DNA of 64,000 bases from NCBI GenBank assembly GCA_963667285.1, contig OY763326.1:3055546-3119545 (forward strand), written 5' to 3'. Positions 8,295-39,571 of the stretch are shown here, piece after piece. The position numbers were made by a program, and so were the translations under genes. Numbering within the stretch: the stretch's first letter is position 1; each line of letters starts with the position of its first letter. Origin of the DNA: Alphaproteobacteria bacterium (GTDB lineage Bacteria > Pseudomonadota > Alphaproteobacteria > MPNO01). The notes beneath the pieces are model-generated. The model was not told where the DNA came from and did not search any database. It was given only the letters and a program-made list of their open reading frames with translations.

Positions 8295-8502
8295 GGAGGC
8301 CCTTCGACAAGGGCCCATACCGAGTACCTGACGAGCGGCAGGCCGACAGCCGGTCCGTGAAGCGCCGGGGCGGCTCCCGCGCCCGCCGTCCCGCCGGGGT
8401 GGGCGCGCCTCTCTCCCACCGCCCGCCCGTCAACGCATCCTTGCAAGCCCCTTCGATACGCCTCCCGTCGACAGGCGCGCGGCGCATTTCGCATGGGAGG
8501 TT

Positions 8503-8590
8503 TTGACCAGATATATCCATAGTGAGATATCCGTCTTGACAGGTATGCCATTCGGGCATGAAGATTTGCTCGTAGATCATCGAAGGGCCG
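8503..8590 (+). promoter_or_regulatory. AT-rich putative promoter/operator region upstream of the autotransporter
   Basis: It contains TTGACC (8503) and TTGACA (8535) boxes, a direct repeat GATAT(A)TCC at 8511 and 8526, and a palindrome ATGCCattcGGGCAT. Confidence 0.3.
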
Positions 8591-8635
8591 GCCCCGCTCA
8601 CCGGTCAGGCCCGATCCGAAGGCGGGAGGCCTGGC

Positions 8636-24996: not shown

Positions 24997-26499
24997 TCAG
25001 GACGCCGCGAACATGCCGTGCAGCGCCATGGGCAGCGGGTAGGGGAGAATGCCCTGCCACAGCGGCCCGTCGGCGATGCGGCCGGCCTCGAACAGGTTGA
25101 GCCCGGCGGTCTGCCGGCGGGTGTCGATATAGGGTCCGATCAGCCAGCCCTCGCCTTCGTCCGGGCCGCGGGCGACGAAGACATGCTCCTCCGGGATCTG
25201 GTGCCGCGGATAGGTCCAGGCGTCCACCGCGCCCGATTCCGGATCGAGACGGGCCGCCGCGCGCAGCGGCCAGCCGGCCGCGGCGCCGTCGCCGGTGAGC
25301 GTGAACAGCCTGCGGTGCCGCCGCCCCGTGTAGCGCTCGTCGATGCGCGGAAACTCGGCGACGCCCGGCGCCCCGTCCTCGATCGCGGCCCTGCCGTCCG
25401 GATGCAGCACGGCGACCCGGTACCGGGGATGGTCCGACGGGAAGTCCAGGGCGCCCCGCATCACGGCGCGGAAATCCCCCGTCACGAAGCCGGGGTCGGG
25501 CGCCTGGCACAGATCCAGCCGAATCGTGCCGTCCGGCTCTTCCCAGCCATTGCCGTGGTGGAAGTGGAAACCGGGCGGCAGCTCATGGCGCCGGACCGGT
25601 TTCAGCGTGTTCTTGTCGACGACGACGGCTCGGGTGCCGAGCCCGGGCTGCCAGGAATGGGCGTCGAGGAACGTGGCGTGGCCCGACGCCCCGTCGATCA
25701 CGAACGGGGTCAGCAGCACGACCAGATGCCGGGCCGTGACGACGAAATCATGCGCCATGCCCAGCGGCCCGAAATCGGGAAGCAGGGCGGCCTCGACCCG
25801 GCGCCCGCCGCGGTCGATGCGGTAGACCAGCAAGACGGGGCGTGGCCGGGTCGCGAAGCCGATGTTCCACAGCGTCCCGTCGGGCTCGACCTTGGGGTGG
25901 GCGGAGAACGGCACGCCGGCGAGGTCCGGGCGCCAGGCCACGAATTCCCCGGCGGCGAGCGTGTCGGGATCGACCGCGAGCGCCGAGCCGCCCTCCCACA
26001 GGGCCATCAGCCGCCCGGCATGGGCGAGCATGGCGGTGTTGGCGACGTTCATGTCGTCCGGGCCGCGCAGCGCGGCCGGGCCCGGGGTTCCGAACCCCGG
26101 CAGGATGCGCTTGCCGGCACGGGTCTCGCGGCGCCGCTTGGGGGTGTCCAGGATGCGCGCGCGGTGGGTCGCCATGCCGTCCTCGAAGGCGAAGGCCTGG
26201 ACCATGCCGTCGCCGTCGAACCAGTGCGTGTAGCGCCGGCCGAAACGCTCGTGCTCGGCCGGGCCGTTGCGCCACAACACGCCGGCGAGGCCGGCGGGAA
26301 GCCGGCCGCTCACCGTCTCGAGCGGCGCGGCCAGGCTCTCCGCCCGCGCGGTCGCGAAGGCGATCAGCCGCGGGTCGCGGGCGATCGCCGCGGCGAAATC
26401 CTCCCGGGGGCCGGCGGCGGCGCCCACGCCCACCGCCATCAGCGCCGGCAGCCCGGCGAGCGCGCGCAGCGCCGCGCGGCGCGGCAGGTCGGCCTTCAT
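24997..26499 (-). CDS. Carotenoid oxygenase family (CCD / lignostilbene dioxygenase-like), Tat signal
   Basis: The N-terminus MKADLPRRAALRALAGLPALMAVGVGAAAG contains the twin-arginine motif RR. Carotenoid-cleavage-family sequence runs the full length. Confidence 0.85.
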   Translation of the reverse strand: MKADLPRRAALRALAGLPALMAVGVGAAAGPREDFAAAIARDPRLIAFATARAESLAAPLETVSGRLPAGLAGVLWRNGPAEHERFGRRYTHWFDGDGMVQAFAFEDGMATHRARILDTPKRRRETRAGKRILPGFGTPGPAALRGPDDMNVANTAMLAHAGRLMALWEGGSALAVDPDTLAAGEFVAWRPDLAGVPFSAHPKVEPDGTLWNIGFATRPRPVLLVYRIDRGGRRVEAALLPDFGPLGMAHDFVVTARHLVVLLTPFVIDGASGHATFLDAHSWQPGLGTRAVVVDKNTLKPVRRHELPPGFHFHHGNGWEEPDGTIRLDLCQAPDPGFVTGDFRAVMRGALDFPSDHPRYRVAVLHPDGRAAIEDGAPGVAEFPRIDERYTGRRHRRLFTLTGDGAAAGWPLRAAARLDPESGAVDAWTYPRHQIPEEHVFVARGPDEGEGWLIGPYIDTRRQTAGLNLFEAGRIADGPLWQGILPYPLPMALHGMFAAS

Positions 26500-26503
26500 C
26501 GCG

Positions 26504-26959
26504 TCAGCCCCCCGGATAGGCGATCCGCACGGCGGCGGTCACGCGCCCGTCCTTCGGGCCCACGGTCACCGCCGCCTCGTCGAAGCCCGGCGGCCCCATG
26601 AACCCCGTGGCGCCGTTGGAAAACCCGAACCCCTCGATGGGCATTCCCACCGCGTTCTGGCCCAGCTTGCCGTCTCCGTCGGCGTCGTGGAAAGCCGCTA
26701 CCGCGTAGTCGCCCGGCGCGAGGTCGGCGAAGACGAAGCGGAGCTTGCCCTTGCCGGCCGGGCGCCAGGCCGCCCCGACGACGCCACCCGCCGGGAAGGC
26801 GGCATCCGGGACTCGCTTGTGGACGGCAACCCGGGCATGGCCCTCCGCGGAGCGCAGGCCGTCGAGGACGACTTCGAGGTCGGCCGCCGGGACGGTCGCC
26901 GGGAAGAGGAGGGCGGCCGCGACGGGCGCGCAGAGTCCGAAAGCTCTCGGGATGGTCAT
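26504..26959 (-). CDS. DUF2141-like secreted protein
   Basis: A signal peptide is present. The body has the DUF2141-type Gly-rich beta-sandwich sequence. It sits 4 nt upstream of the oxygenase. Confidence 0.65.
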   Translation of the reverse strand: MTIPRAFGLCAPVAAALLFPATVPAADLEVVLDGLRSAEGHARVAVHKRVPDAAFPAGGVVGAAWRPAGKGKLRFVFADLAPGDYAVAAFHDADGDGKLGQNAVGMPIEGFGFSNGATGFMGPPGFDEAAVTVGPKDGRVTAAVRIAYPGG

Positions 26960-27063
26960 CGTGTCTTGCCTCCTGGCTGTTCAACGTCGATGCCGGCAGT
27001 GTTGATCGCGCCCGGCAGGCGGGTCATTGTCGGTTACGCGGATGCACCGGACTATTTCGCCAG

Positions 27064-27858
27064 TTGCAGGATTCGTCGTTCACGCATCGTGAATTGCTCG
27101 GCCCCCGGTCGTTCGCCGTCCAGGGGTCGGTGCTCGCCTGCCTGATCGCGCTGTTCGCCTTCATCGGCCCGTTCGGGACCTACGATTCGCTCGGCGCGGC
27201 GGGACGCCTCGGCTACTGGGCGCTGGCGCTCGGCGCCAACTGGCTGGTCTGCGGCAGCGTCATGATCCTGACCCTGCGCCTCGCCGCTTCCGCTTCCCGA
27301 CGGGGCCTGGCGCTGGCGATGGCGGGCGCCGCCCTGGTGGCGGCGGTTCCCGGCACCGCCGTCGTCCTCACCGCCGAAACCCTGTTCCGGCCGGGCTACG
27401 AGGGCGGCAACGCGCTCGCGACGATCTATCCCGGCGTGGCCGTGCTGATGATGGCGATCAGCTTCCTCGTCGTCGGCGTGCTCGCCCGCGTGCAGACGGC
27501 CGCCGGGGACGCCGCGTCATCGGCCGCGGGCGATGACGGGCGCGAGACCGTGCGCTTCCTCGACCGCCTGCCGCCGGAACTCGGCCGCGATCTGGTGTAT
27601 CTTCGCATGTCGGATCACTACGTCGAGGCGTTCACCACCGCCGGCTCGACGCTGGTGCTGATGCGTTTCGCCGATGCGGTGGCGGAACTCGAAGGCGCCG
27701 GCGGGCTGCGCGTCCACCGGTCCTACTGGGTCTCGCGGCGCCATGTGACCGGGGCGGCGCGCCGCAACGGTCGCACCGTATTGGGCCTGACCGGCGGACA
27801 CGAGGCCCCGGTCAGCCGGGGCTACCTGGCGGCGGTCCGCGCCGCCGGTCTGGCGTGA
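27064..27858 (+). CDS. LytTR-family DNA-binding protein with N-terminal membrane domain
   Basis: The C-terminal LytTR domain reads RVHRSYWVSRRHV...GGHEAPVSRGY. The N-terminus is hydrophobic. The start is uncertain (TTG at 27064). Confidence 0.65.
   Translation: MQDSSFTHRELLGPRSFAVQGSVLACLIALFAFIGPFGTYDSLGAAGRLGYWALALGANWLVCGSVMILTLRLAASASRRGLALAMAGAALVAAVPGTAVVLTAETLFRPGYEGGNALATIYPGVAVLMMAISFLVVGVLARVQTAAGDAASSAAGDDGRETVRFLDRLPPELGRDLVYLRMSDHYVEAFTTAGSTLVLMRFADAVAELEGAGGLRVHRSYWVSRRHVTGAARRNGRTVLGLTGGHEAPVSRGYLAAVRAAGLA
27076..27090. promoter_or_regulatory. Palindrome TTCACGcatCGTGAA at the divergent promoter / 5' end of the LytTR gene
   Basis: Read from the sequence. It lies within the annotated TTG-start ORF, so the true start may be further downstream. 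Confidence 0.3.
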
Positions 27859-27934: not shown

Positions 27935-28927
27935 TCGGAGCGGTACGAGTTCTGCAAGGACACGGATTTCGTCGTCGACAACCTCACCGGCGTCGAGACG
28001 CTGGAATATTCGCTCGATTCGGGCACCGAAGGCGGCATCACCGAACCCGCCTATCTGCGCCAGGTCGAGGCGTTCGCCGAATGGTTCCGCAAACAGCCCG
28101 AGGTGTCCCACGTCCAGGCCTTTCCCGACTTCATGAAGCGCCTGAACAAGAACCTGCACGGCGACGACCCGGATTTCTACCGGGTGCCCGACGACCCGGA
28201 CCTGTCCGCGCAATACCTGCTGCTCTACGAGCTGTCGCTGCCCTTCGGCAGGGATCTGAACAACCGGATCGATATCGGCAAGGCGGCGACCCGCATGACG
28301 GTCGTGATGCGGAGCCTCACCTCCCAGGCGCAGCGCGAGCTGGACGCGCGCGCCCAGGCGTGACTGCGGGCCAACGCTCCCGGTCTCGCGGCCGAGGCCT
28401 CGGGCGTCACCATCGTCTTCGCCCATCATTCCCAGCGCAACATCGAGAGCATGCCGACCGGCACGATCGTCGCGATGGCGCTCATTTCGCTGATCCTGGT
28501 CTTCGTGTTCCGGAGCCTGCGGGTCGGCCCGCTGAGCCTGGTGCCGAATTTCATCCCCGCCGCGATGAGCCTCGGCCTCTGGGGCTTTATGGTCGGCCGC
28601 GTGGGCCTCGCCGGTTCGGTGATGACCGCCATCGCGTTCGGGATCGTGGTCGACGACACGATCCATTTCCTGACCAAGTACCTCAAGGCGAGGCGCGAAG
28701 GCCGCGACGCCCCCGAGGCGGTGCGCTCCGCCTTCCGCGCCGTCGGCCACGCCCTGTGGACCACCACCGCCGTGCTCGCGCTCGGCTTCCTGGTGTTCGC
28801 CTCGTCCGGTTTCGAGGTCAGCTGGGCGCTCGGCCTCCTGGTCTCGCTCACGATCGTCTTCGCGCTGCTCGCGGATTTCCTGCTCCTGCCGCCCTTGTTG
28901 ATGGCTCTCGATCGGAGGAAGTCGTGA
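27935..28927 (+). pseudogene. RND-superfamily exporter (MMPL/HpnN-like), C-terminal ~330 aa only, with in-frame TGA
   Basis: The frame is continuous from 27791 to 28927 except for a TGA at 28361..28363 in the context QA-W-LRANAP, a likely TGG->TGA change. The C-terminal transmembrane bundle ends ...LLPPLLMALDRRKS. The N-terminal ~450 aa are absent. Confidence 0.65.
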
Positions 28928-29361
28928 TTCTCGCCCGTTCGACCCGGTCGGGCTCCTTCATGGGCAGCGCGTTTTCCTACGAGAATCTCGGCGCGCCGGA
29001 GGTGGAGAAATACAAGTACCGCCACCTGAAGGACGAAGCCTGCGGCGCGCTCGCCTGTTCGGTGGTGGAGACCGTGCCGGTCGAGAAGGGGCCGGGCTAC
29101 ACCAGGCAGATCGTCTGGCGCGACAAGGACGAGCTCCGGGTCTGGAAGATCGCCCATTTCGACCGCAAGAACGCGCATCTCAAGACGCTCGCGCTGGGCG
29201 AGTGCCGGCGCCATCCGGACCGCTACTGGCGCGCCTCCGAGATGACGATGGAGAACCATCTGACGGGCAAGAGCACGATCATGCGCTGGTCCGACTTCGC
29301 GTTCCGCGCCAGGCTGTCGGACCGCGACTTCAGCCAGTCCAGCCTGAAACGCGCGCGCTGA
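28924..29361 (+). pseudogene. LolA-like outer-membrane lipoprotein-sorting family protein, C-terminal half only
   Basis: The fragment ...GSAFSYENLGAPEVEKYKY... matches the C-terminal part of LolA-like partners of RND exporters. There is no signal peptide or N-terminal half. It starts immediately at the RND stop. Confidence 0.5.
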
Positions 29362-29449: not shown

Positions 29450-30469
29450 ATGAGCGGAATCGAGCAAGCGAACGGTCACAAGCCGCTGTCCCTGGCGCAT
29501 CTGGTCGACCCCAATATCGGGCGCGTCACGCGGCCCGACCCGGCGGATTACCGCTTCGAGCTGGCCGACGTGCTGCGCTCGGTCGTGCAGCTCCGCTCGC
29601 AGGCGCCGGAGGATGCGTTCAGCTCGTCCTATCTGGGTACCGAGCGCGAAGGCAACGCGATCCTGGTGGGCGAGGACAATTTGTTCCTCACCATCGGCTA
29701 TCTGATCGCCGAGGCCGAGCACATCGTCCTCGGTTCGGAACAGACCGGCGCGACCCGCGCCCAGGTGCTCGCCTACGATTACGAGACCGGGTTCGGCCTG
29801 CTGCGCGGCGGCTCCGCGCTCGGCGCGAGCCCCATCGCGCTCGGCGACACGGCCGGGTTCAAGGAAAAGGACTGGCTGGTCGCGGCCGCCCGGGGAGGTC
29901 TGGAGAACGCCATCAAGGCGCAGGTCGTTTCCAAGCGGGAATTCGCCGGCTACTGGGAATACCTGCTCGACGAGGCGATATTCACCGCACCGCCGCACCC
30001 CCACTGGAGCGGCGCGGCGCTGATCGACGGCGACGGCCGGCTGGTCGGGCTGGGCTCGCTCTTCGTCCAGGACGCGGCGCCCGGCGGCGGGCCGAGCGCG
30101 GGCAACATGTTCGTCCCGATCGATCTCTACAAGGAAACCGTGGACGACCTGCTGCGCTACGGCCGGCGCCCGGGCCCCAGCCGGCCCTGGCTCGGCATCT
30201 ACAGCGTCGAGGCGCTGGGCCGGGTGCTGATCACCTCGATCTCCGAGCGCGGCCCCTGCGCCGGGTCGGACGTCGAGCCGGGCGACGTCGTGCTGGCGGT
30301 CAATGACGACAACATCGAATCCATGGCCCAGATGTATCGCCGGGTCTGGGGTATCGGCCCCGCCGGGTCGACGGTGACCCTCAAGCTGCTGCGCGATGGC
30401 GAGGTGCATACCGTCGACGTGGTCTCGGCGGAGCGGGACAGGGTGATGAAGAACCCGCGCACGCACTAG
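29450..30469 (+). CDS. S1C (trypsin-like, DegP/HtrA-related) serine protease with PDZ domain
   Basis: A trypsin-like core (HWSGAALIDGDGRLVG) is followed by a C-terminal PDZ-like region. Confidence 0.8.
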   Translation: MSGIEQANGHKPLSLAHLVDPNIGRVTRPDPADYRFELADVLRSVVQLRSQAPEDAFSSSYLGTEREGNAILVGEDNLFLTIGYLIAEAEHIVLGSEQTGATRAQVLAYDYETGFGLLRGGSALGASPIALGDTAGFKEKDWLVAAARGGLENAIKAQVVSKREFAGYWEYLLDEAIFTAPPHPHWSGAALIDGDGRLVGLGSLFVQDAAPGGGPSAGNMFVPIDLYKETVDDLLRYGRRPGPSRPWLGIYSVEALGRVLITSISERGPCAGSDVEPGDVVLAVNDDNIESMAQMYRRVWGIGPAGSTVTLKLLRDGEVHTVDVVSAERDRVMKNPRTH

Positions 30470-30498: not shown

Positions 30499-33084
30499 AT
30501 GAACCGCACGCTGCAAACCCTGATCGACGATCTGCAGCGCTTCGGCGATGCCCCGGCGGTCATCGCCTTCACCGAGGCGGGCATGGAAACCCGCAGCTAT
30601 CGCGGCCTGCACCGCGACGCGCTCGCGCTCGCCGGCGGGCTGATCGGGCGCGGCCTCGGCCACGGCGTTCGGGTCGGCGTGATCGGCGTCAACAGCGACC
30701 CGCACGTGGTGCTGCGCCTCGCGCTCGCCGCGGTCGGCGCGGTCGCGGTTCCGCTCGACGACATGGGATCGCCGGAGGAGTTCCGCCGGGCGCTGGCGGA
30801 TAGCGGGGCGCGGGCGCTGTTCGCCGACCGGCAGGTCTTGGACCAACTCCCCGAGGCGGCAATCCGTGACCTGGCCGGCGTCTGGCGCCTCGACGGCGCC
30901 GGTACCGGCGCATCCGCGCACTGGTCGACGCTGCTCGGCGAAGCGCCGGAGGGGCTTCCCGCGGTCGCGCCGGAAGACCTCGCCGCGATCATCTACACCT
31001 CGGGCACCACCGGGGTGGCCAAGGGCGTGCCCCTGACCCACGGCAATTTCATGTTCAACGTCGAGGCCCTGGCCGAGGGCGGGTTCGTCGACACGAGCGA
31101 CCGGGCCGCGCTGCCCTTGCCGCTCCACCACGCCTATCCCTTCATGGCCGGGCTGATGGTGCCGTTCGCCTGCGGCTCGACCGTAATCCTCCCGAGCGCG
31201 CCCACCGGACCCGATGTCGCGACCGCGCTCCGCGAAGCCCGCGCGACCGTCATGCTGGGCGTGCCGCGGCTCTACGAGGCCCTGGTCGAGGGGATCGGCG
31301 GGAGGCTCGCGGACGGCGTTGCCGGCAAGCTGTTCGGCGCCCTCTGGCGGGTTTCCACGGCGGTCTCGCGCAGCGGCGGCCCGCGCCTCGGCAGGTGGCT
31401 GATGTGGCCGGTGCGCCGCCGCTTCGCGCCCCGGCTGCGCATGGTGGTCTCGGGCGGCGCCAAGCTAGACGAGGCGGTCGCCTGGCGCCTCGAAGGTCTC
31501 GGCTTCCAGGTGCTCACCGGCTACGGGCTGGTCGAGACCTCGTCGGTCACCACCTACAACCGCTACGGCGCCGGACGCATCGGCACCGAGGGCAGGCCGG
31601 TCGAGGGCAGCGAGCTGCGCATCGCCGATGCCGACGAGGAAGGGATCGGCGAGGTGCAGATCCGCGGCCCGCACGTGTTCGCGGGCTATTTCAACGACAG
31701 CGCGACCACCGCCTCCGTGTTCGCCGAAGACGGCTGGTTCCGCTCCGGCGATCTCGGCCGCATCGACGCCGACGGCTCGCTGGTGGTCACCGGGCGCAGC
31801 AAGGACGTGATCGTGTTGTCCGGCGGCAAGAATATCGGCCCCGAGGAAGTCGAGACCGCGCTCGCCGCGAGCCCGCTGATCGCCGAGGCCGCGGTGTTCG
31901 AGCGCGACGGCGGCCTCGCCGCCCTCATCGTCCCGGACGAGGACGGGCTGCGCCAGGCGCAGACCCGGAGGCTCGACGACGCGATCCGCATCGCCGTCAC
32001 CGAGGCCGGCGCCGAGCTCGCGCCGTACAAGCGGGTGACGTCCTACCGCATCCATCGCGAGCCGTTGCCGCGAACCCGGCTGAGCAAGCTCCGCCGGTTC
32101 CGCCTGCCCGCGCTGTTCGACGCCGCGGGCGGCCGCGAGGCCGGAGGGGGACGCGCGGCGGAGGATGCGACGCTTGCCGCGGACCCCCGGGCGGTCCGTG
32201 TCCTCGGGCTGATGCGCGCCCGCTTCGCCGACGACCCGATCGACTTCTCGACCAGCCCGCAGCTCGACCTCGGGGTCGATTCGCTCGCCTGGCTGGAGAT
32301 CGCGCAGGAGATCGAGGGCGCGCTCGGCGTCTCGCTCGCCCCCGACGCGCTGGCCGAGGTGGTGACGCTCGCCGATCTCGTCCGCGCCGCCATCGCCGCG
32401 CCCGAGGCGGCGCCCGAAGCCCCGGCGGACATCGTCCTGCCCGCGCCGCCGCGCTGCGTCGGGCGCTGCGTCGGCTGGACGGCCTGGTGGCTCAACCGGC
32501 TGGTCATGAAGGCGGCGTTCGGCGTCCGGCGCAGCGGCCCGGTCCCCGATGCCGGCCGGCCGGTGATCCTGATCGCCAACCATGCCAGCGATCTCGATCC
32601 GCTGGTGCTGGCGGCGGCGCTCCCCTGGCGGGTGTTCGACGGACTCTGGTGGAGCGCCGACAAGGCCCGCGTGTTCGAATCGTCCACGCTGAGCTGGCTC
32701 GCCCGCGTCGCCCGGCTGTTTCCGGTCGACGACCGCAGCCCCGCCGAGGGGCTCGCCATCGCCGGCGGGCTGATCGACCGCGGCGACAGCGTGGTCTGGT
32801 TCCCCGAATCCTGGCGCTCCCCGGACGGGCGGCTCCAGGGTTTCATGCGCGGGATCGGCATGGTGCTCTCGCAACGCCAGGCCGCCCTGGCGCCAGCCTA
32901 TATCGCGGGGACCTTCGCGGCGCTGCCGCGCCACCGGCGCTGGCCCCGGCTGCGGCGGGTGAGCGTCCATTTCGGCGAGCCGGCGGTCTCCCCGCCGGAG
33001 GCCCGGACGATCGACGCCGCGGTCGCCGCCGCCCGCGCACTCGTCGCCGATCTGGAAACGCGCTATGGTGCGGCGGAGGATTGA
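30499..33084 (+). CDS. Tri-domain acyl-[ACP] synthetase (AMP-binding) - ACP - lysophospholipid acyltransferase (PlsC-like)
   Basis: The AMP-binding motifs are YTSGTTGVAKGV and GYGLVETS. The phosphopantetheine attachment motif is LGVDSLAWLEI. The acyltransferase motifs are NHASDLD (HX4D) and FPESWRS. Confidence 0.85.
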   Translation: MNRTLQTLIDDLQRFGDAPAVIAFTEAGMETRSYRGLHRDALALAGGLIGRGLGHGVRVGVIGVNSDPHVVLRLALAAVGAVAVPLDDMGSPEEFRRALADSGARALFADRQVLDQLPEAAIRDLAGVWRLDGAGTGASAHWSTLLGEAPEGLPAVAPEDLAAIIYTSGTTGVAKGVPLTHGNFMFNVEALAEGGFVDTSDRAALPLPLHHAYPFMAGLMVPFACGSTVILPSAPTGPDVATALREARATVMLGVPRLYEALVEGIGGRLADGVAGKLFGALWRVSTAVSRSGGPRLGRWLMWPVRRRFAPRLRMVVSGGAKLDEAVAWRLEGLGFQVLTGYGLVETSSVTTYNRYGAGRIGTEGRPVEGSELRIADADEEGIGEVQIRGPHVFAGYFNDSATTASVFAEDGWFRSGDLGRIDADGSLVVTGRSKDVIVLSGGKNIGPEEVETALAASPLIAEAAVFERDGGLAALIVPDEDGLRQAQTRRLDDAIRIAVTEAGAELAPYKRVTSYRIHREPLPRTRLSKLRRFRLPALFDAAGGREAGGGRAAEDATLAADPRAVRVLGLMRARFADDPIDFSTSPQLDLGVDSLAWLEIAQEIEGALGVSLAPDALAEVVTLADLVRAAIAAPEAAPEAPADIVLPAPPRCVGRCVGWTAWWLNRLVMKAAFGVRRSGPVPDAGRPVILIANHASDLDPLVLAAALPWRVFDGLWWSADKARVFESSTLSWLARVARLFPVDDRSPAEGLAIAGGLIDRGDSVVWFPESWRSPDGRLQGFMRGIGMVLSQRQAALAPAYIAGTFAALPRHRRWPRLRRVSVHFGEPAVSPPEARTIDAAVAAARALVADLETRYGAAED

Positions 33085-33097
33085 AGCGGGAGACGGC

Positions 33098-33988
33098 ATG
33101 CCGCGCGAAGAACACATTTCCTTCCAGTCGGACGGGCTCACCCTGCGCGGTATCCTGCATCTGCCGGACGACATGGCGCCGGGCGAACGCCGCCCGGCCT
33201 TCCTGGTCCTGCACGGTTTCGGCGGCAACAAGACGTCCGGCAACTGCCTGCTGCCCTGCCGGATGCTGACCGGCCTCGGCTACGTCACGCTGCGCTTCGA
33301 CATGCGAGGCTGCGGCGAGAGCGACGGCGAATTCGGCCGGATCATCTGCCTGGAACAGGTCGAGGACACCAAGGCGGCGCATGGCTGGCTGGCGACGCGT
33401 CCGGAAGTCGAGCCCGACCGCATCGGCGCGCTCGGTTCGAGCTTCGGCGCGGCGGTCTCGGTCTACACCGCCGGCGTCCATGAGGGGATCGCGGCGGTGA
33501 TCTCGTCGGGCGGGTGGGGCGACGGCGCGCGCAAGTTCCGCGGCCAGCACCCGACCCCGGAAGCGTGGAAGAAGTTCACCGACATGCTCGAAGCCGGCAA
33601 GCGCCACCGCGAACGGACCGGCGAGTCTCTGATGGTGCCGCGCTACGACATCGTGCCGATACCCGATCATCTCAGGAACAATCTCGCCGCCAACTCGGTC
33701 AGCGAGTTCCCCGCCGAGACGGCCCAGTCGATGTACGATTTCGTCGCCGACGACGTGGTCGGCAACATCGCGCCCAGGCCGCTGCTCCTGCTGCACAGCT
33801 CGGTGGATTCGGTCACCCCGACCGAGCAGTCGATCGAGATGTTCAAGCGCGCCGGCCAGCCCACCGATCTGCACCTGACCGCGGACACCGATCATTTCAT
33901 GTTCGCCGAGAGCAATGTGCGGGTGCGGCGCGTGATCGAGGATTGGCTGGAATCCTATTTTCCCGCGCACGCGCCGGTGGCCGCCTGA
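33098..33988 (+). CDS. Alpha/beta hydrolase (lipase/esterase-like, GSSFG nucleophile elbow)
   Basis: The ATG (MPREEHISF) follows a GGAGA SD. Motifs HGFGGN and GSSFG are present. Confidence 0.8.
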   Translation: MPREEHISFQSDGLTLRGILHLPDDMAPGERRPAFLVLHGFGGNKTSGNCLLPCRMLTGLGYVTLRFDMRGCGESDGEFGRIICLEQVEDTKAAHGWLATRPEVEPDRIGALGSSFGAAVSVYTAGVHEGIAAVISSGGWGDGARKFRGQHPTPEAWKKFTDMLEAGKRHRERTGESLMVPRYDIVPIPDHLRNNLAANSVSEFPAETAQSMYDFVADDVVGNIAPRPLLLLHSSVDSVTPTEQSIEMFKRAGQPTDLHLTADTDHFMFAESNVRVRRVIEDWLESYFPAHAPVAA

Positions 33989-34016: not shown

Positions 34017-34529
34017 ATGATGCCTCCGATCAAGAGCCTGCATCACTGGGCCTATCGCTGCCGCGACGCCGAGCAGACCCGGCATTTCTACGAGGACGTG
34101 CTCGGCCTCCCGCTGGCCCACGTGGTCTCGGCCGACATCGTGCCGAGCACCGGCGAGTACTCGCCCTATGTCCACATCTTCTTCGAGATGGCGGACGGCT
34201 CCTATGTCGCCTTCTTCGATCTCGGCGACGGCGAGATCACCCAACGCGACCCCGGCACGCCGCGCTGGGTCAACCACCTCGCGCTCGAGGTGGAGAACGA
34301 GGCGGCGCTGGAGACCGCCAAGGCGCGGCTGGAAGCGGAAGGCGTCGACGTGCTCGGCGTGACCGACCACGGCTTCGTCAAGTCGATCTACTTCTTCGAC
34401 CCCAACGACATCCGGCTCGAGCTCACCTGCCGGGTCTCGGGCAAGGCGGAGCTCGAGAAGAAGGCGGCCGAGGCGCACGAGCTTCTGGCCCGGTGGACCA
34501 ACCGGCCGGAGCGGGTCGCCGCCGAATAG
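34017..34529 (+). CDS. VOC family protein (glyoxalase/extradiol dioxygenase fold)
   Basis: Starts HHWAYRCRDAEQTRHFYEDVLGL and has a typical VOC N-terminus. Confidence 0.8.
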   Translation: MMPPIKSLHHWAYRCRDAEQTRHFYEDVLGLPLAHVVSADIVPSTGEYSPYVHIFFEMADGSYVAFFDLGDGEITQRDPGTPRWVNHLALEVENEAALETAKARLEAEGVDVLGVTDHGFVKSIYFFDPNDIRLELTCRVSGKAELEKKAAEAHELLARWTNRPERVAAE

Positions 34530-34586: not shown

Positions 34587-35204
34587 TCATCGTTCGGCGG
34601 GCAGCACCCCGGTCATCGCGTCGATCCAGCCCGCATCGACGTCCAGCGTCCCGAGCTCGGCTGCGGCTTCCGCCCTGGTCTGGGTGACCATCGGGATCAC
34701 CCCCGGGGCCTCGCCCTCTGCCGGATGGCAGCACGCCTCCAGCCGGATCCCGTTGGGATCCCTGAAATAGATCGAGACCATGCCGGGCAGGATGTCGACC
34801 GGCCCGTCGAAGGGAACGCCGTGCTCGGTCAGCCGCCGCTGGATCTCCGCGAACCGTTCCGCCGTCACCACGAAGGCGCAATGCTGCATGCCGCCGATGG
34901 CGTCGCGGTCCGATTGCGGCATCTCCCCCTTGGGGATCTCGAAGAACGCGAGCAGGCTGTCGTTGCCCATGTCGAAGAAATAGTGCCGGATGCATTCCCA
35001 GGGCGGGTTGCCGCGATTGCCGGGCCCGGTGCCGACGCCCTCCGGGACCTTCATCGCATGCACCAGCGGCATGCCGACGACGTTCACGAAGAACTCGGTG
35101 GTCGCCTTCATGTCCTCGGTGGTCAGCGCGAGATGATGCACGCCGCGGGTGACGACGTCATAGCCGGCCGCCTGGGCCGGCGCGGGCGCTCCGGAATCGG
35201 CCAT
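34587..35204 (-). CDS. VOC family protein
   Basis: Begins GVHHLALTTEDMKATTEFF...; convergent with the previous gene. Confidence 0.8.
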   Translation of the reverse strand: MADSGAPAPAQAAGYDVVTRGVHHLALTTEDMKATTEFFVNVVGMPLVHAMKVPEGVGTGPGNRGNPPWECIRHYFFDMGNDSLLAFFEIPKGEMPQSDRDAIGGMQHCAFVVTAERFAEIQRRLTEHGVPFDGPVDILPGMVSIYFRDPNGIRLEACCHPAEGEAPGVIPMVTQTRAEAAAELGTLDVDAGWIDAMTGVLPAER

Positions 35205-35290: not shown

Positions 35291-36775
35291 TCAGGTCGGG
35301 AGCCGGGTCGCCTGGGCACGCCGGTATATCGCTTCGAGAGCGGGGGCGAGCCGGCGGGCTCCGGCCTCCATCGCCGGCACGCAATCCCGCAGATAGCGTT
35401 CGCCCGCTTCGCGGATCTCGTCGCGCAGCGCGTCTTCGTCCACCGTCAGGATCTTGCGGTCGAGCATGACAACCCGGCCGTCCACGATCGAGGTCTTCAC
35501 CGCCTCCGACGTCGCCGAGAAGGCGAGCTGGCGGATCGGGTCGACCAGCGGGACGAAGCCCCAATGATCGCGGTCGAGCAGGATCAGGTCGGCCCGCATG
35601 CCGGGCTCGATCCTTCCCGTCTCGTCGGCCATCAGCCCCGTCCGGGCTCCCGCCGAGGTCGCCATGTCGAACACTTCGTCGGCGGAGACCCAGGACGCGT
35701 GGTCCGGATTGCCCGGTTTGTGGATCAGGCTCGCCGCCCTGATCGCCTCCACGAGATCGGCGGTGTCGCTGGTCGCCAGGCCGTCGGTGCCGAGCGCCAC
35801 GTCGATCCCGGCGTCCAGCAGCTTGCGCACAGGACAGGTGCCGCTGCCGAGCTTCATGTTGGACAGCGGGTTGTGGACCGCCGAGCAGCCGTGCGCGGAG
35901 AGCCGCGCGATGTCGTCCTCGGTGAGCCAGATCGCATGGACCAGCGTGCTGCGCGGTCCGAGAAGCCCCATGCTTTCCATGAAGGCCACCGCGGTCATGC
36001 CCCAGGCCTGTTGGGCGTGGATCGCCTGCAGCCTGGTCTCCAGCGTGTGGCAGTGGATCGGAATGTGGCGCTCTTCCGACAGCGCGGCGATCCGGCGCAG
36101 GAGGTCGGGCGTGCAGCGCTGCGGCCCGCAGGGGGCCAGCACGATGCGGATCCGGCCGTCGTGCCCGTGCCAGCGCTCGAACTGGCGCTCGAACAGGGCG
36201 GTCTGCGCATCTGCATCGGCGCCGCCCATGGCCGCGAGCTCGTGGTGGATCGCCTCCGGTATCAGCTCGTCCGCCCACGGCAGGCACGCCCGCAAAGGCT
36301 GGTCCCACATGTCCACCGTCACCCAGGCCCGGAGGCCCGCATCCGCGTAAGCCCGGATCGCCGCGTCCATCGCGTCCGGCGTGGCCGGCGGATGCACATA
36401 GTCGTCCTGGACGGTCGTCACGCCGGCGCGGATCGATTCGATGGCCGCCAGCATGGTTCGCAGGTAATAGTCGCGCTCCGTCAGGATCGGAAAGCCGAAA
36501 GGCGGGTAACTCTCGCCGAGCCAGATTTCGAGCGGCAGGTTGTCGTAGGCGCCCTGCTGGAACCCCTCGTTCGAGTGGAGATGGGCGTTCACCAGCCCCG
36601 GCATGACGATCCCGTTCGACGCGTCGACGACGGTTCCGTCGTACTCCCGCCCCTTGCCCGGTCCGATGGCGGAGATATGCGCGCCCTCGACCACGATGTC
36701 CGCGGTCTCGTAGCGGCGCGCCCCGGCGGCGCCGCGGACGACCAGGCCGTCGTTGACGATCAGCGTCCCGGCCAT
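35291..36775 (-). CDS. Amidohydrolase (SsnA / 8-oxoguanine deaminase / chlorohydrolase subfamily)
   Basis: The metal-binding motif is PGLVNAHLHS. At 494 aa it is in the TRZ/ATZ-like family. Confidence 0.8.
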   Translation of the reverse strand: MAGTLIVNDGLVVRGAAGARRYETADIVVEGAHISAIGPGKGREYDGTVVDASNGIVMPGLVNAHLHSNEGFQQGAYDNLPLEIWLGESYPPFGFPILTERDYYLRTMLAAIESIRAGVTTVQDDYVHPPATPDAMDAAIRAYADAGLRAWVTVDMWDQPLRACLPWADELIPEAIHHELAAMGGADADAQTALFERQFERWHGHDGRIRIVLAPCGPQRCTPDLLRRIAALSEERHIPIHCHTLETRLQAIHAQQAWGMTAVAFMESMGLLGPRSTLVHAIWLTEDDIARLSAHGCSAVHNPLSNMKLGSGTCPVRKLLDAGIDVALGTDGLATSDTADLVEAIRAASLIHKPGNPDHASWVSADEVFDMATSAGARTGLMADETGRIEPGMRADLILLDRDHWGFVPLVDPIRQLAFSATSEAVKTSIVDGRVVMLDRKILTVDEDALRDEIREAGERYLRDCVPAMEAGARRLAPALEAIYRRAQATRLPT

Positions 36776-36791
36776 TCGCGTCGCCCGCCGG

Positions 36792-39098
36792 CTACCCCCG
36801 CAAGGCCCGCAGCACCCGTTCCGGCGTCATCGGCAGGCGCCTGAGCCGGGTTCCCGTGGCATGGGCGACGGCGTTGGAGATCGCCGGCGCGATGCCCACG
36901 ATCGGCGGCTCGCCGACGCCCTTGGCGCCGAACGGGCCGTCCTCGTCCGGGTCCTCGACCAGCATGGTGTCGATCTCCGGCGGCACGTCCATGATGCCCG
37001 GAATCTTGTAATCCATCAAAGACGGGTTCGCGAGCCGCCCCGAATCCCACACCATCTCCTCGCACAGCGCGTAGCCCAGCCCCTGGACGATGCCGCCCTG
37101 GATCTGGCCCTCGACCGCCGTCGGGTTGATCGCCTTGCCGATATCGTGCGCCGACCAGACTTTCAGCGGCAGGATCCGTCCGGTCGCTTCGTCGACCTCC
37201 ACCTCGACCGCCTGGGCGGCGAAGATCCAGGCGCCGATCTTGCCGAACGGAAAGCCCTTCAGGTAGCCGCGCTTGGGGTCGAAATCCGGCCCGTCATAGG
37301 CCAGCGAGTTGGTGCCGATGACCGGCCCGCCGGCGACCCAGTGCGAGAAGCCGGAGATGTCGCGGAACCCGATCTCGGCCTCCGGCACGCCCTTGATGCC
37401 GATGCGCCCGCCGTCGCGGAGTTCCAGATCCTCCTCGGCGCACTCCATCATGACCGCCGCGCGCTGCTTGAGCTGGGCCACCGCGTCCTCGGAGGCGGCG
37501 ACCACCGCGCGGCCGGCCATGTAGGTGACACGGCTCGCCGTGGTGCCCCAGTTATAGGGCGAGCCGTCGGTATCCGGCGTGGCCACGCTCACCTGGTCGA
37601 TTTCGAGGCCGAGCGCGGCGGCGCAGATCTGGACCAGCACCGTGTCCGAGCCCTGGCCGTTGTCGACCGCGCCGGTATTCAGCACCGCGGTGCCGTCCTC
37701 GAGGATGCGGACGATCGCGCCCGAGGTCAGCACGCCCGAGATATGCGGGATGCAGGCGAGCCCGATTCCGCGCTTGCGGCCCGACCCGTTGGACACGGCC
37801 TTGCGCTTCCCGTCCCAGCCGCAAGCCGCGCGGACCCGCTCCAGGCATTCCGACAGCCCGGACTTGTTGAGCGCCACGCCGATCATCCACTCCTCGCCCG
37901 GGCGCACGACGTTCTTGAGCCGCAGGTCGATCGGGTCCATGCCGAGCCGGTCGGCGATCTCGTCGATCTGGGTCTCGCCGGCGATGGCGACCTGCGGGCC
38001 GCCGAAGCCGCGGAACGCGCCCGAGCGCAGCTTGTTGGTGTAGACCGGGCGCGATTCGATCGAGACGTTCTCGATGCGGTAGGGCCCGCGGCAGAACAGC
38101 GCCGCGATCCCGGCCACGCCCGGGCTGTCGTCGGCATAGGCGCCGGCGTCGAGGACGATCCGGACCTCGCGCGCGAGCAGCGTGCCGTCGGCCGCCGCGC
38201 CGGTCTTCATCCACACCTTGCCGGGGTGGCGGGAGCGGATCATCTCGAAATCCTGCTCGCGGCTCAGCGTCACCTTGACCGGCCGGCCGGTGGCGCGGGC
38301 GAGCGCGGCGGCGGCGGGCTGCACGGTCTGCTCCATTTTGCCGCCGAAGGCGCCGCCCACCTGCGGGGTGACGCAGCGCAGCTTGGACATCGGTAGCCCG
38401 AGCGAATCGGCGACGAAGGACTGGACGTGGAACACCGACTGGTTGGACGACCAGATGGTGATCTTGCCGTTGGAATCGATCTCGGCCAGCGCCGAGCACG
38501 GCTCCATGTAGGTGTGGCACTGCGCCTGGGTCTCGTAGCTTCCCTCGACGATCGCCGCGCAGCTTTCCCAGGCCGAGTCCACGTCGCCCTCGACGATCTC
38601 GATGATCGCCATCGCGTTGCGGTCGCTGTCGGCCTCGAAGACCTTGATGTAGTCCGCGAAGCCCTCGTGCAGCGCGGGCGCATCCGCGGCGGTCGCCGCG
38701 TCGGTGTCGAACACCGCCGGCAGCTCCTCGTAGGAGATGTCGATCAGCCGCGCGGCCTGCCTGGCGGTCTCCAGATCGACCGCCGCCACCGCGGCCACCG
38801 GCTCGCCCATATAGCGCACCTTGCCGACCGCGAGCGCGGTCTCGTCCTTGACGAAGGGGCCGATCTTGTGGTCGCCGATGTCCGCGCCGGTGACCACCGC
38901 CGCGACGCCGTCGAGCGCGAGCGCCGCGGAGACATCGTATCCCGTGATCCGCGCATGGGCGTGGGGGCTCGGCACGATCACGCCCACCAGCATGTCTGGG
39001 CGCGACATGTCGTCGGCGTAGACCGCCCTGCCGGTGATCTTGTCGCGCGTCTCCAGCCGCGGGATGCCCTGCCCGACGGGGCTCACATAGTCGTTCAT
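36792..39098 (-). CDS. Xanthine dehydrogenase family molybdopterin-binding (large) subunit
   Basis: The ATG (MNDYVSP) follows a GGGAGG SD and overlaps the upstream stop (ATGA). Motifs QVGGAFGGK and the XDH-type loop AFRGFGGPQ are present. Confidence 0.85.
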   Translation of the reverse strand: MNDYVSPVGQGIPRLETRDKITGRAVYADDMSRPDMLVGVIVPSPHAHARITGYDVSAALALDGVAAVVTGADIGDHKIGPFVKDETALAVGKVRYMGEPVAAVAAVDLETARQAARLIDISYEELPAVFDTDAATAADAPALHEGFADYIKVFEADSDRNAMAIIEIVEGDVDSAWESCAAIVEGSYETQAQCHTYMEPCSALAEIDSNGKITIWSSNQSVFHVQSFVADSLGLPMSKLRCVTPQVGGAFGGKMEQTVQPAAAALARATGRPVKVTLSREQDFEMIRSRHPGKVWMKTGAAADGTLLAREVRIVLDAGAYADDSPGVAGIAALFCRGPYRIENVSIESRPVYTNKLRSGAFRGFGGPQVAIAGETQIDEIADRLGMDPIDLRLKNVVRPGEEWMIGVALNKSGLSECLERVRAACGWDGKRKAVSNGSGRKRGIGLACIPHISGVLTSGAIVRILEDGTAVLNTGAVDNGQGSDTVLVQICAAALGLEIDQVSVATPDTDGSPYNWGTTASRVTYMAGRAVVAASEDAVAQLKQRAAVMMECAEEDLELRDGGRIGIKGVPEAEIGFRDISGFSHWVAGGPVIGTNSLAYDGPDFDPKRGYLKGFPFGKIGAWIFAAQAVEVEVDEATGRILPLKVWSAHDIGKAINPTAVEGQIQGGIVQGLGYALCEEMVWDSGRLANPSLMDYKIPGIMDVPPEIDTMLVEDPDEDGPFGAKGVGEPPIVGIAPAISNAVAHATGTRLRRLPMTPERVLRALRG

Positions 39099-39571
39099 GA
39101 CGCGCCTCCCGCGCTCGCCGATCTGACCGCCTCGACCACCTTCACATAGCCCGAACAGCGGCAGAGATTGCCCGACAGCCCGTCGCGGATCTCGGCGTCG
39201 CTCGGGCTCGGGTTGTCCGCCAGCAATGCGGTCGCCGCCACCGCCATGCCCGGCATGCAGAAGCCGCACTGCACCGCGCCATGGTCGAGCAGCGCCTGTT
39301 GCACCGGCGACAGCGCGCCGCCCTCGGCGAGACCCTCCACGGTGACGATCTCGCGTCCGGCGGCGTCGGCGGCAAGCGTCAGGCAGCCGCGCATCACGGC
39401 GCCGTCGATCATCACCGAACAGGCACCGCAGACCCCCTGGTTGCAGCCCCGCTTGGAGCCGGTGAGCGAAATCCGCTCGCGCAATACCTGCAGGAGCGTG
39501 TGCCAGGGCTGGACGAACAGCCGGTGCGTCCGTCCGTTGACCTCGAGCGAGATCGGGATGGCTTCGCTCAT
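39095..39571 (-). CDS. (2Fe-2S)-binding small subunit of Mo hydroxylase
   Basis: Carries CNQGVCGACSV and CGFCMPG cysteine clusters. Confidence 0.9.
   Translation of the reverse strand: MSEAIPISLEVNGRTHRLFVQPWHTLLQVLRERISLTGSKRGCNQGVCGACSVMIDGAVMRGCLTLAADAAGREIVTVEGLAEGGALSPVQQALLDHGAVQCGFCMPGMAVAATALLADNPSPSDAEIRDGLSGNLCRCSGYVKVVEAVRSASAGGAS

Follow-up and report, generated by a model that had tools for sequence, protein, structure and literature searches.

A 64-kb stretch of contig OY763326.1 from an Alphaproteobacteria bacterium (hereafter the window; ~70% G+C) contains a gene for an 861-residue fusion protein in which an adenylating ligase, an acyl carrier domain, and a PlsC-type acyltransferase follow one another (Table 1). 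We consider it moderately probable that this fusion is a self-contained acyl-transfer enzyme that passes an acyl group, in a three-step relay, to a membrane glycerolipid acceptor. By analogy, and with the same middling confidence, the protein would be a functional counterpart of Escherichia coli Aas that carries its own acyl carrier protein (ACP). An earlier note on this DNA, prepared from the sequence alone, had proposed the tri-domain composition and order, a phosphopantetheine-binding domain between the AMP-binding and acyltransferase regions, and an Aas-like logic with the order reversed and the ACP built in. The first two proposals were borne out, as the Pfam domains scored above their cut-offs, every quoted motif was present, and a PP-binding domain was located at residues 577-630 (35.8 bits versus 20.8); the third fits the domain order and the catalytic residues described below.

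All four Pfam domains of the fusion exceed their gathering scores. The AMP-binding match (PF00501) reached 233.8 bits versus a gathering score of 29.9, and the AMP-binding_C match, also above its gathering score, covered residues 450-530 (E 2.8e-06). A long Trp/Leu/Lys-rich helix, VGWTAWWLNRLVMKAAFGVRRS, precedes the acyltransferase core and is, by analogy with PlsC, a putative membrane-interface helix. Hydropathy analysis revealed no transmembrane segment anywhere in the fusion and no signal peptide in either the fusion or the alpha/beta hydrolase encoded downstream of it. No NCBIfam model reaches its curated cut-off for the fusion; NCBI thus has no specific name for it, and such proteins are labeled in the databases simply as "AMP-binding protein."

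The catalytic residues were compared in an alignment of 27 fusion homologues from many phyla, including Alphaproteobacteria, Nitrospirota, Verrucomicrobiota, Acidobacteriota, and Melainabacteria. Within the adenylation domain, S168, G169, G343, E346, T347, and D418 are present in all 27 homologues; T167, T170, T171, and Y342 are present in 26, K175 in 25, and G172 in 24. The hinge residue R433 and the catalytic K530 are invariant, as are H695, D700, and E770 of the acyltransferase, and Ser595 of the carrier is kept in 26 of the 27. The complete conservation of E346, T347, D418, R433, K530, H695, D700, and E770, together with the near-complete conservation of Ser595, indicates that the three centers are under joint selection. 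The exception at Ser595 is the L003 homologue (8001-10508; loci from other genomes are designated by L numbers), which has DLL in place of DSL with its other catalytic residues intact; this Leu-for-Ser change may reflect an inactive carrier or a sequencing error.

Structural comparisons were in agreement with the domain assignments. The adenylation-carrier stretch aligns up to residue 602 with the EntE-EntB adenylation-carrier chimera (3rg2/4iz6), and the sole PDB sequence match of the acyltransferase region was PlsC from Thermotoga maritima (5kym, E 6e-6), with the HX4D and FPExxRS blocks aligned. The AlphaFold model of residues 540-861, which covers the ACP and acyltransferase domains, had a pLDDT of 89.5 and a pTM of 0.79. 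Its top Foldseek match was again PlsC 5kym (E 3.8e-8, TM 0.63), with GPAT1, PatA, and plastidial GPAT ranked below, and the modeled four-helix bundle of the carrier superposes on type II ACPs at 1.5-2 Å. Among solved structures, the ligase is closest to CoA ligases that differ in specificity (malonyl-, feruloyl-, and fatty-acyl-CoA), with 146.6 bits for the CoA ligase MatB (4fuq) versus 82 bits for the FAAL 3pbk. On the basis of its PF00501 score and core motifs, the ligase belongs to the ANL adenylate-forming family. At the level of sequence and model, the PF00550 score, the serine of the D-S-L motif, and the four-helix bundle place the carrier domain among the phosphopantetheine carriers, and the HX4D motif, the FPEGTRS-like block, and the PlsC-like fold place the last domain in the PlsC/AGPAT/GPAT family.

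In the relay that we propose, the ANL-type adenylation domain would form an acyl-adenylate from ATP and a free carboxylic acid, of which a long-chain fatty acid is the likeliest; Ser595 of the protein's own carrier domain would then receive the acyl group on its phosphopantetheine arm; and the PlsC-type domain, with His695 and Asp700 as its predicted catalytic pair, would shift it from the carrier to a hydroxyl group of a membrane glycerolipid. A lipid of the lysophosphatidic-acid or lysophospholipid type is the probable acceptor, and the reaction would probably take place on the cytoplasmic side of the inner membrane, with the enzyme docked by means of the helix at residues 653-674. Docking is suggested by the example of PlsC and by that of Aas, which lacks transmembrane helices and is a peripheral membrane enzyme (PMC11416262). 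The relay is well supported at the level of its chemistry; a fatty-acid substrate, an acceptor of this kind, and docking at the membrane are what we infer.

The fusion was compared with known systems that share parts of this design. ElbD of Myxococcus xanthus (MXAN_1528, UniProt Q1DC43), compared here through its description, has the same ordered core of ligase, ACP, and AGPAT-like acyltransferase. Its full arrangement is FAR-ACS-ACP-AGPAT, it was purified as a soluble protein, and in vitro work confirmed that the corresponding domains act as an acyl-CoA synthetase (ACS) and an ACP (PMC9131029). The N-terminal FAR1-like (NAD_binding_4) reductase of ElbD is absent from the fusion, and no reductase open reading frame (ORF) lies upstream in the loci examined. 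ORFs encoding 330-415 residues upstream of distant homologues were considered as split-off ElbD reductases and rejected, being patatin (L008, L011) or YegS (L009, L016) genes. Genes for an NAD-dependent SDR and a CDP-alcohol phosphatidyltransferase accompany homologues; the elb context (the HAD-like elbB and the NAD-epimerase elbE) is not found in the window, and an SDR neighbor (HpnA) occurs only in the sister clade described below. By its predicted architecture, the fusion is a reductase-less form of myxobacterial ElbD.

Aas resembles the fusion in combining ATP-dependent fatty-acid activation, an acyl-ACP intermediate, and a PlsC-type acyltransferase in one protein. It differs in that its acyltransferase precedes its ligase and free holo-ACP is used, whereas the fusion has the opposite order and a carrier of its own. 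The fusion scored 165 bits against the Aas-type NCBIfam model PRK08633, for which the cut-off is 1221. Furthermore, Aas works with LplT, whereas no LplT-like transporter lies beside any fusion homologue examined and the window has no MFS neighbor; the MFS neighbors in L024, L001, L090, and L182 were considered as LplT-like partners and gave no LplT match. Its domain order, use of ACP, NCBIfam score, and lack of an LplT link thus set the fusion apart from Aas proper. PlsC (5kym) is the closest solved relative of the acyltransferase domain by both sequence and fold, but it stands alone, draws acyl-ACP or acyl-CoA from the cellular pool, and is only ~20% identical to the domain. Fusions of FAAL-like domains with lysophospholipid acyltransferases, the same kind of protein as the fusion, have been described as unusual architectures, independent of polyketide synthases and nonribosomal peptide synthetases, whose function is unknown (PMC8460268). 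The higher score of the fusion ligase against CoA ligases than against a FAAL suggests that it may not be of the FAAL type.

The architecture is widespread. The best 120 database relatives are nearly all 856-971 residues long, all but one have the Acyltransferase domain, and PP-binding is recorded for most; one relative with 89% identity is a protein from a Defluviicoccus metagenome-assembled genome (MAG). A search with the ACP and acyltransferase half alone gave 1,630 matches at E<=1e-10 (among 1.84 billion cluster representatives from 50%-identity clusters) in many phyla, and most of the full-length matches span 865-930 residues. A genome scan that used generic adenylation motifs found the full fusion in 18 of 80 loci among the matches listed, from Alpha- and Gammaproteobacteria, Nitrospirota, Verrucomicrobiota, Acidobacteriota, Planctomycetia, Melainabacteria, Saccharibacteria, Geobacter, Sneathia, and Clostridia. 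The plasmid collection held only one full-length homologue, with uninformative neighbors. This protein (WP_084264133.1, "AMP-binding protein," 37.7% identity) is encoded on plasmid 1 of the cultured organism Rubrobacter radiotolerans RSPS-4 (L182, NZ_CP007515.1 33458-36193). The literature already mentions such proteins: among ElbD-like homologues outside myxobacteria, "almost all lack a FAR1 domain" (PMC9131029). The architecture is therefore common and not new. Judged from sequence, the fusion is best grouped with a known but uncharacterized class, the reductase-less ElbD-like or ligase-ACP-lysophospholipid acyltransferase fusions.

Several observations weigh against the proposed relay. The literature searched yielded no assayed or otherwise characterized reductase-less member of the family, and acyltransferase activity was not detected for ElbD in vitro (PMC9131029). 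The closest solved ligases are CoA ligases that differ among themselves in substrate, so the comparison does not establish a fatty acid as the substrate. None of the MFS neighbors in L024, L001, and L182 is LplT-like, so the pairing of Aas with LplT has no counterpart here. Apart from the fusion, the window has no gene of lipid metabolism, and at about half of the distant fusion loci the neighbors, which are heterogeneous, have no lipid link.

Lipid-related genes nevertheless recur beside homologues elsewhere. A patatin phospholipase gene precedes the homologue in a Melainabacteria MAG and an unclassified bacterium (L008 and L011), and genes for YegS-family lipid kinases, MlaA, and an AsmA-family protein adjoin others (Table 1). 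The patatin and fusion genes form a genuine deacylase-reacylase pairing, so the idea of a deacylase beside a reacylase, raised in the earlier note for the local hydrolase, occurs in the family with patatin in other phyla but is not realized by that hydrolase. A more consistent context was observed in the sister clade, defined by 48-57% fusion identity (L084, L085, L086/87, L178-180, and L181). In all five of these independent loci a CDP-alcohol phosphatidyltransferase gene (CDP-OH_P_transf) lies divergently upstream of the fusion. The phosphatidyltransferase is followed by HpnL and HpnN in three loci, and HpnA is present in four (L084 2538-7864, L086 2075-7872, L179 770-6076, and L085 5572-7816). 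Where compared, these assignments exceed the NCBI curated cut-offs, with 312 and 306 bits for HpnL (versus 195.65), 935 and 984 bits for HpnN (versus 751.85), and 474, 472, and 484 bits for HpnA (versus 367.65). No function is known for HpnA or HpnL, and the genera listed as encoding shc and hpnH include Defluviicoccus (PMC12583986, PMC12324291). The conserved backbone consists of the divergent CDP-alcohol phosphatidyltransferase gene, in the sister clade only, and the downstream VOC-family gene. At one locus only, L084 (7202-11752), the start of a GT4 glycosyltransferase gene (10628) overlaps the stop codon of the fusion (10631), with a PIP synthase-like gene upstream. This arrangement resembles what we take to be the mycobacterial order pgsA1-patA-pimA.

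Where a relative has no hydrolase gene, the VOC-family gene comes immediately after the fusion, and the VOC protein of the window has a 70%-identical orthologue in L178. One or two VOC genes adjoin the fusion throughout the clade of 48-100% fusion identity (L178 6423-6965 and 9328-9939; L085 10832-11440; L181 4031-4438), and the VOC proteins are more conserved (68-70%) than the fusion (54%).

In the window, the protease-like gene, the fusion, the hydrolase, and the first VOC gene are all on the plus strand, with gaps of 29, 13, and 28 nt, respectively. The ATG at 33098 is most likely the hydrolase start, giving a protein of 296 residues in line with its orthologues (291-296 residues); the alternative start at 33065 would create a 20-nt overlap with the fusion. 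No sigma-70-like promoter was found at the locus, and terminator-like sites were not enriched (4 versus 2.9 ± 1.9 in shuffled sequence), so the case for co-transcription comes from the short gaps. The hydrolase and HtrA-like genes are probably co-transcribed with the fusion here, yet they are not dedicated partners of it.

The earlier note had called the downstream protein a lipase-like alpha/beta hydrolase with a GSSFG elbow. The hydrolase and its elbow are real, but its nearest solved relatives are carboxylesterases, namely 7qjm (MHETase-like, E 1.7e-44) and feruloyl/cinnamoyl esterases, and lipase entries in the PDB matched only at E ~1e-10. A G-x-S-x-G elbow is common to serine alpha/beta hydrolases generally, and GSSFG is thus not a lipase signature. 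Among the NCBIfam matches of the hydrolase there was no lipase model, the top match being an AHL-lactonase model (92 bits versus a cut-off of 400), and beyond the elbow we found no similarity specific to lipases or phospholipases.

The hydrolase belongs to a large and very conserved family (5,769 matches at E<=1e-20), and its orthologues in L092-L177, several of them from Alphaproteobacteria, are 66-80% identical and occupy varied contexts. The orthologue follows rpoD in L093-97, and in L092 and L099 it comes immediately after the HtrA-like gene without an intervening fusion. As rpoD adjoins the hydrolase in just 3 of 50 loci, there is no single conserved hydrolase context. The order of protease-like gene, fusion, hydrolase, and VOC gene is kept in a close clade, comprising L081-83 (74-75% fusion identity) and L098 (95%). 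Outside this clade the hydrolase was next to the fusion in none of 25 loci (18 distant, 5 sister-clade, L088, and L090), and tblastn detected no hydrolase or protease homologue in the 18 distant fusion loci (best E 0.05, L003). In the reciprocal comparison, the fusion was found in 1 of 80 metagenomic hydrolase-orthologue loci (66-97% identity), that being L098 from the same species, and in 1 of the 38 that had at least 2.7 kb of upstream sequence. The L178 locus has the order fusion, first VOC gene (70%), a gene for a 372-residue protein (73% identical to that of L081), and second VOC gene on the opposite strand (68%); the 372-residue protein is encoded in L081 and L178 but not in the window. 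L178 therefore preserves the window/L081 backbone without the hydrolase, which is decisive against a conserved fusion-hydrolase pairing. We conclude that the hydrolase is a neighbor specific to this clade and not a conserved partner of the fusion. The synteny that had been anticipated does extend to L081-83 and L098 but is absent from the other 25 fusion loci, and the two-gene module fails as a general proposal, as the pair occurs only in close relatives of at least 74% identity and 79 of 80 hydrolase loci lack the fusion. The pairing that recurs outside the close clade in the loci examined is that of the HtrA-like gene with the hydrolase (L092 5946-7879; L099 3-1486), not that of fusion with hydrolase.

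The gene upstream of the fusion, previously described as encoding a DegP-like protease of the envelope, matches the HtrA fold family, but neither the complete His-Asp-Ser triad nor periplasmic export expected of an HtrA/DegP serine protease was found. Alignment to DegP-like structures puts a Tyr at the position of the catalytic His (LTIGYLI versus LTNNHVV) and a Gly at that of the Asp, while the Ser is retained, and this degenerate triad is common to all four orthologues (the window; L081, 6937-7956; L092, 5946-6965; L085, 2754-3776). The full triad does occur in L008, in a canonical secreted HtrA that is unrelated to these proteins. By hydropathy, the window protein lacks both a signal peptide and a hydrophobic N-terminus. 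By these sequence features, the protein is predicted to be cytoplasmic and not an envelope protease, and its conservation suggests a pseudo-protease or an atypical hydrolase.

Several other roles for the fusion were weighed against the relay to a membrane glycerolipid. The sister-clade neighbors raise the possibility of a hopanoid-associated specialized lipid pathway, in which the fusion would supply the acyl chain of an uncharacterized lipid, the adjacent CDP-alcohol phosphatidyltransferase would build its head group, and HpnL (flippase-like), HpnN (exporter), and HpnA (SDR) would handle the lipid; possible products are an acylated inositol-type phospholipid and a hopanoid-polyol ester, with the Defluviicoccus copy being an enzyme separated from the cluster. 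The divergent phosphatidyltransferase gene at every sister-clade locus, the Hpn neighbors above curated cut-offs, the GT4 gene that overlaps the fusion stop codon in L084, the lack of a known function for HpnA and HpnL, and the listing of Defluviicoccus among the shc/hpnH genera (PMC12583986, PMC12324291) are in its favor. The window, however, contains no hpn or CDP-alcohol phosphatidyltransferase gene at E<1e-3, shc and hpnH do not occur within 8 kb in the sister-clade loci, the association is limited to one clade (neither L088 and L090 nor the 18 distant loci show it), and the acyltransferase domain is closer to PlsC than to the glycolipid acyltransferase PatA. We regard this role as unlikely, and somewhat less likely still its more specific form, in which the fusion would be the missing acyl-donor enzyme of the hopanoid-gene-associated pathway, esterifying a hopanoid polyol or a special phospholipid that HpnL and HpnN would then flip and export, with the Defluviicoccus gene displaced from the cluster. 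A role like that of ElbD in ether-lipid synthesis, in which the fusion would make acyl-dihydroxyacetone phosphate or acyl-glycerol-3-phosphate for an alkyl-ether pathway, draws on the shared ACS-ACP-acyltransferase order and on the FAR1-less ElbD-like homologues outside myxobacteria (PMC9131029). Moreover, elbD homologues of sponge symbionts lie beside genes for CDP-alcohol phosphatidyltransferases and diacylglycerol kinases, which resembles L084-87 and L009/L016. The fusion nonetheless has no reductase domain, no gene for AGPS or an ElbB- or ElbE-like protein is present in the window, the suspected split-off reductases were patatin or YegS, and no protein of ElbD length occurs among the 150 best ACP-acyltransferase relatives, so that we consider this role highly improbable.

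The Lands-cycle unit implied by the earlier note, in which the hydrolase would take one acyl chain off a lipid or lipoprotein of the envelope, leaving a lyso product for the fusion to re-acylate, is very unlikely on the evidence given above. Its attractions are the shared strand and the 13-nt gap (or 20-nt overlap), which make co-transcription likely, the retention of the arrangement in L081-83 and L098, and the deacylase-reacylase pairing seen with patatin in L008 and L011. These are outweighed by the absence of the hydrolase at all 25 fusion loci outside the close clade, the near absence of the fusion from hydrolase loci (1 of 80, or 1 of 38, and that in the same species), and the L178 backbone from which the hydrolase is missing. 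In addition, the hydrolase orthologues are still 66-80% identical where they follow rpoD or the HtrA-like gene, the nearest solved hydrolases are aryl and short-chain esterases, the best NCBIfam match is the low-scoring AHL-lactonase model, and neither protein has a signal peptide. As improbable as the ether-lipid role, in our judgment, is a non-fatty substrate, by which the ligase would activate an aromatic or other small carboxylic acid for esterification to an acceptor, with the flanking VOC proteins and the esterase taking part. The conserved downstream partners are VOC/glyoxalase-family proteins, solved relatives of the hydrolase act on aromatic esters, a PaaK-like ligase gene lies beside the HtrA-like gene in L085, and the best solved relatives of the ligase include malonyl- and feruloyl-CoA synthetases, all of which would suit such chemistry. 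Against it, the characterized PlsC-family acyltransferases move, to our knowledge, long acyl chains onto lipid acceptors; the JGI annotation and the top NCBIfam model are long-chain fatty-acid ligases; and the lipid-gene neighbors in other phyla argue for a lipid role.

If the proposed relay to a membrane glycerolipid is correct, the fusion would provide a self-sufficient route for free fatty acids into membrane lipids, independent of CoA and of the cellular ACP pool. ElbD is the one studied relative, and the acyltransferase step has never been demonstrated for it; characterizing one member of the family would name thousands of genes now called "AMP-binding protein." The sister-clade link to HpnA, HpnL, HpnN, and the CDP-alcohol phosphatidyltransferase gives a concrete and testable starting point for hopanoid-associated genes that have no known function. 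The value of the locus thus lies in the large unassayed family and in the HpnA/HpnL lead, not in the local gene pair or a two-gene Lands cycle.

Table 1. Positions of the fusion, its domains and motifs, and neighboring genes. Nucleotide (nt) positions are those of the window unless a locus is named.
Feature	Position	Strand	Details
Tri-domain fusion gene	30499-33084	+	861 aa; adenylating ligase, carrier domain, PlsC-type acyltransferase; from ORF, Pfam, and same-architecture family
Adenylation domain, N-terminal part	aa 13-398, nt 30535-31692	+	AMP-binding PF00501, E 3.6e-69
Adenylation P-loop YTSGTTGVAKGV	aa 166-177, nt 30994-31029	+	Within adenylation domain
GYGLVETS motif	aa 341-348, nt 31519-31542	+	Within adenylation domain
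Hinge GRSKD	aa 432-436, nt 31792-31806	+	Directly ahead of C-terminal adenylation subdomain
Adenylation C-terminal subdomain	aa 436-533, nt 31804-32097	+	PF23562 and PF13193
PRTRLSKLRRF with catalytic Lys530	nt 32068-32100	+	C-terminal adenylation subdomain
In-line acyl carrier domain	aa 577-630, nt 32227-32388	+	PP-binding PF00550, 35.8 bits vs cut-off 20.8
LGVDSLAWLEI with phosphopantetheine Ser595	aa 591-601; Ser595 codon nt 32281-32283	+	Carrier domain
Trp/Leu/Lys-rich helix VGWTAWWLNRLVMKAAFGVRRS	aa 653-674, nt 32455-32520	+	Precedes acyltransferase core; AlphaFold model residues 114-135, pLDDT >90
PlsC-type acyltransferase domain	aa 686-802, nt 32554-32904	+	Acyltransferase PF01553, 46.3 bits vs cut-off 23
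HX4D motif NHASDLD	aa 694-700, nt 32578-32598	+	Acyltransferase domain
FPESWRS block	aa 768-774, nt 32800-32820	+	Acyltransferase domain
APAYIAG	nt 32890-32910	+	Acyltransferase domain
HtrA-fold and PDZ protein	29450-30469	+	Pfam Trypsin_2 and PDZ
Alpha/beta hydrolase	33098-33988 (alternative start 33065)	+	296 aa; Pfam Peptidase_S15, Hydrolase_4
GSSFG nucleophile elbow	nt 33434-33448	+	Hydrolase
VOC/glyoxalase-family protein	34017-34529	+	170 aa; Pfam PF00903
Second VOC/glyoxalase-family protein	34587-35204	-	205 aa; Pfam; conserved backbone; orthologues 70% (L085), 68% (L178)
Patatin phospholipase	L008 6833-7924; L011 6631-7878		Same strand as fusion homologue, 77 and 123 nt upstream of it
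YegS-family lipid kinase	L009, L016		Beside homologue
MlaA	L017		Beside homologue
AsmA-family protein	L010		Beside homologue
CDP-alcohol phosphatidyltransferase	5/5 sister-clade loci		Divergent to fusion

Other genes of the window were also identified. Between the LytTR gene and the HtrA-like gene, fragments matching an MMPL/RND transporter (Pfam, 47 bits) and a LolA_like protein for lipoprotein sorting (121 bits) were detected on the plus strand at 28103-28363, 28451-28927, and 28930-29361. They are absent from L081, whereas the same-species contig L098 keeps them with ~364 extra bp at the junction, and they look like a decaying remnant. Farther upstream (24997-27858), genes for an RPE65-family carotenoid-cleavage oxygenase (500 aa, minus strand), a DUF2141 protein (151 aa, minus strand), and a membrane LytTR-domain protein (264 aa, plus strand) are arranged collinearly with those of L081. 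Downstream, on the minus strand at 35291-39269, a gene for a TRZ/ATZ-type amidohydrolase (deaminase-like) lies beside one for a molybdopterin hydroxylase of the xanthine-dehydrogenase family, and in L081 genes for the Fer2 and FAD-binding subunits come after this pair. The region looks like a separate opposite-strand block for the catabolism of purines or N-heterocycles.

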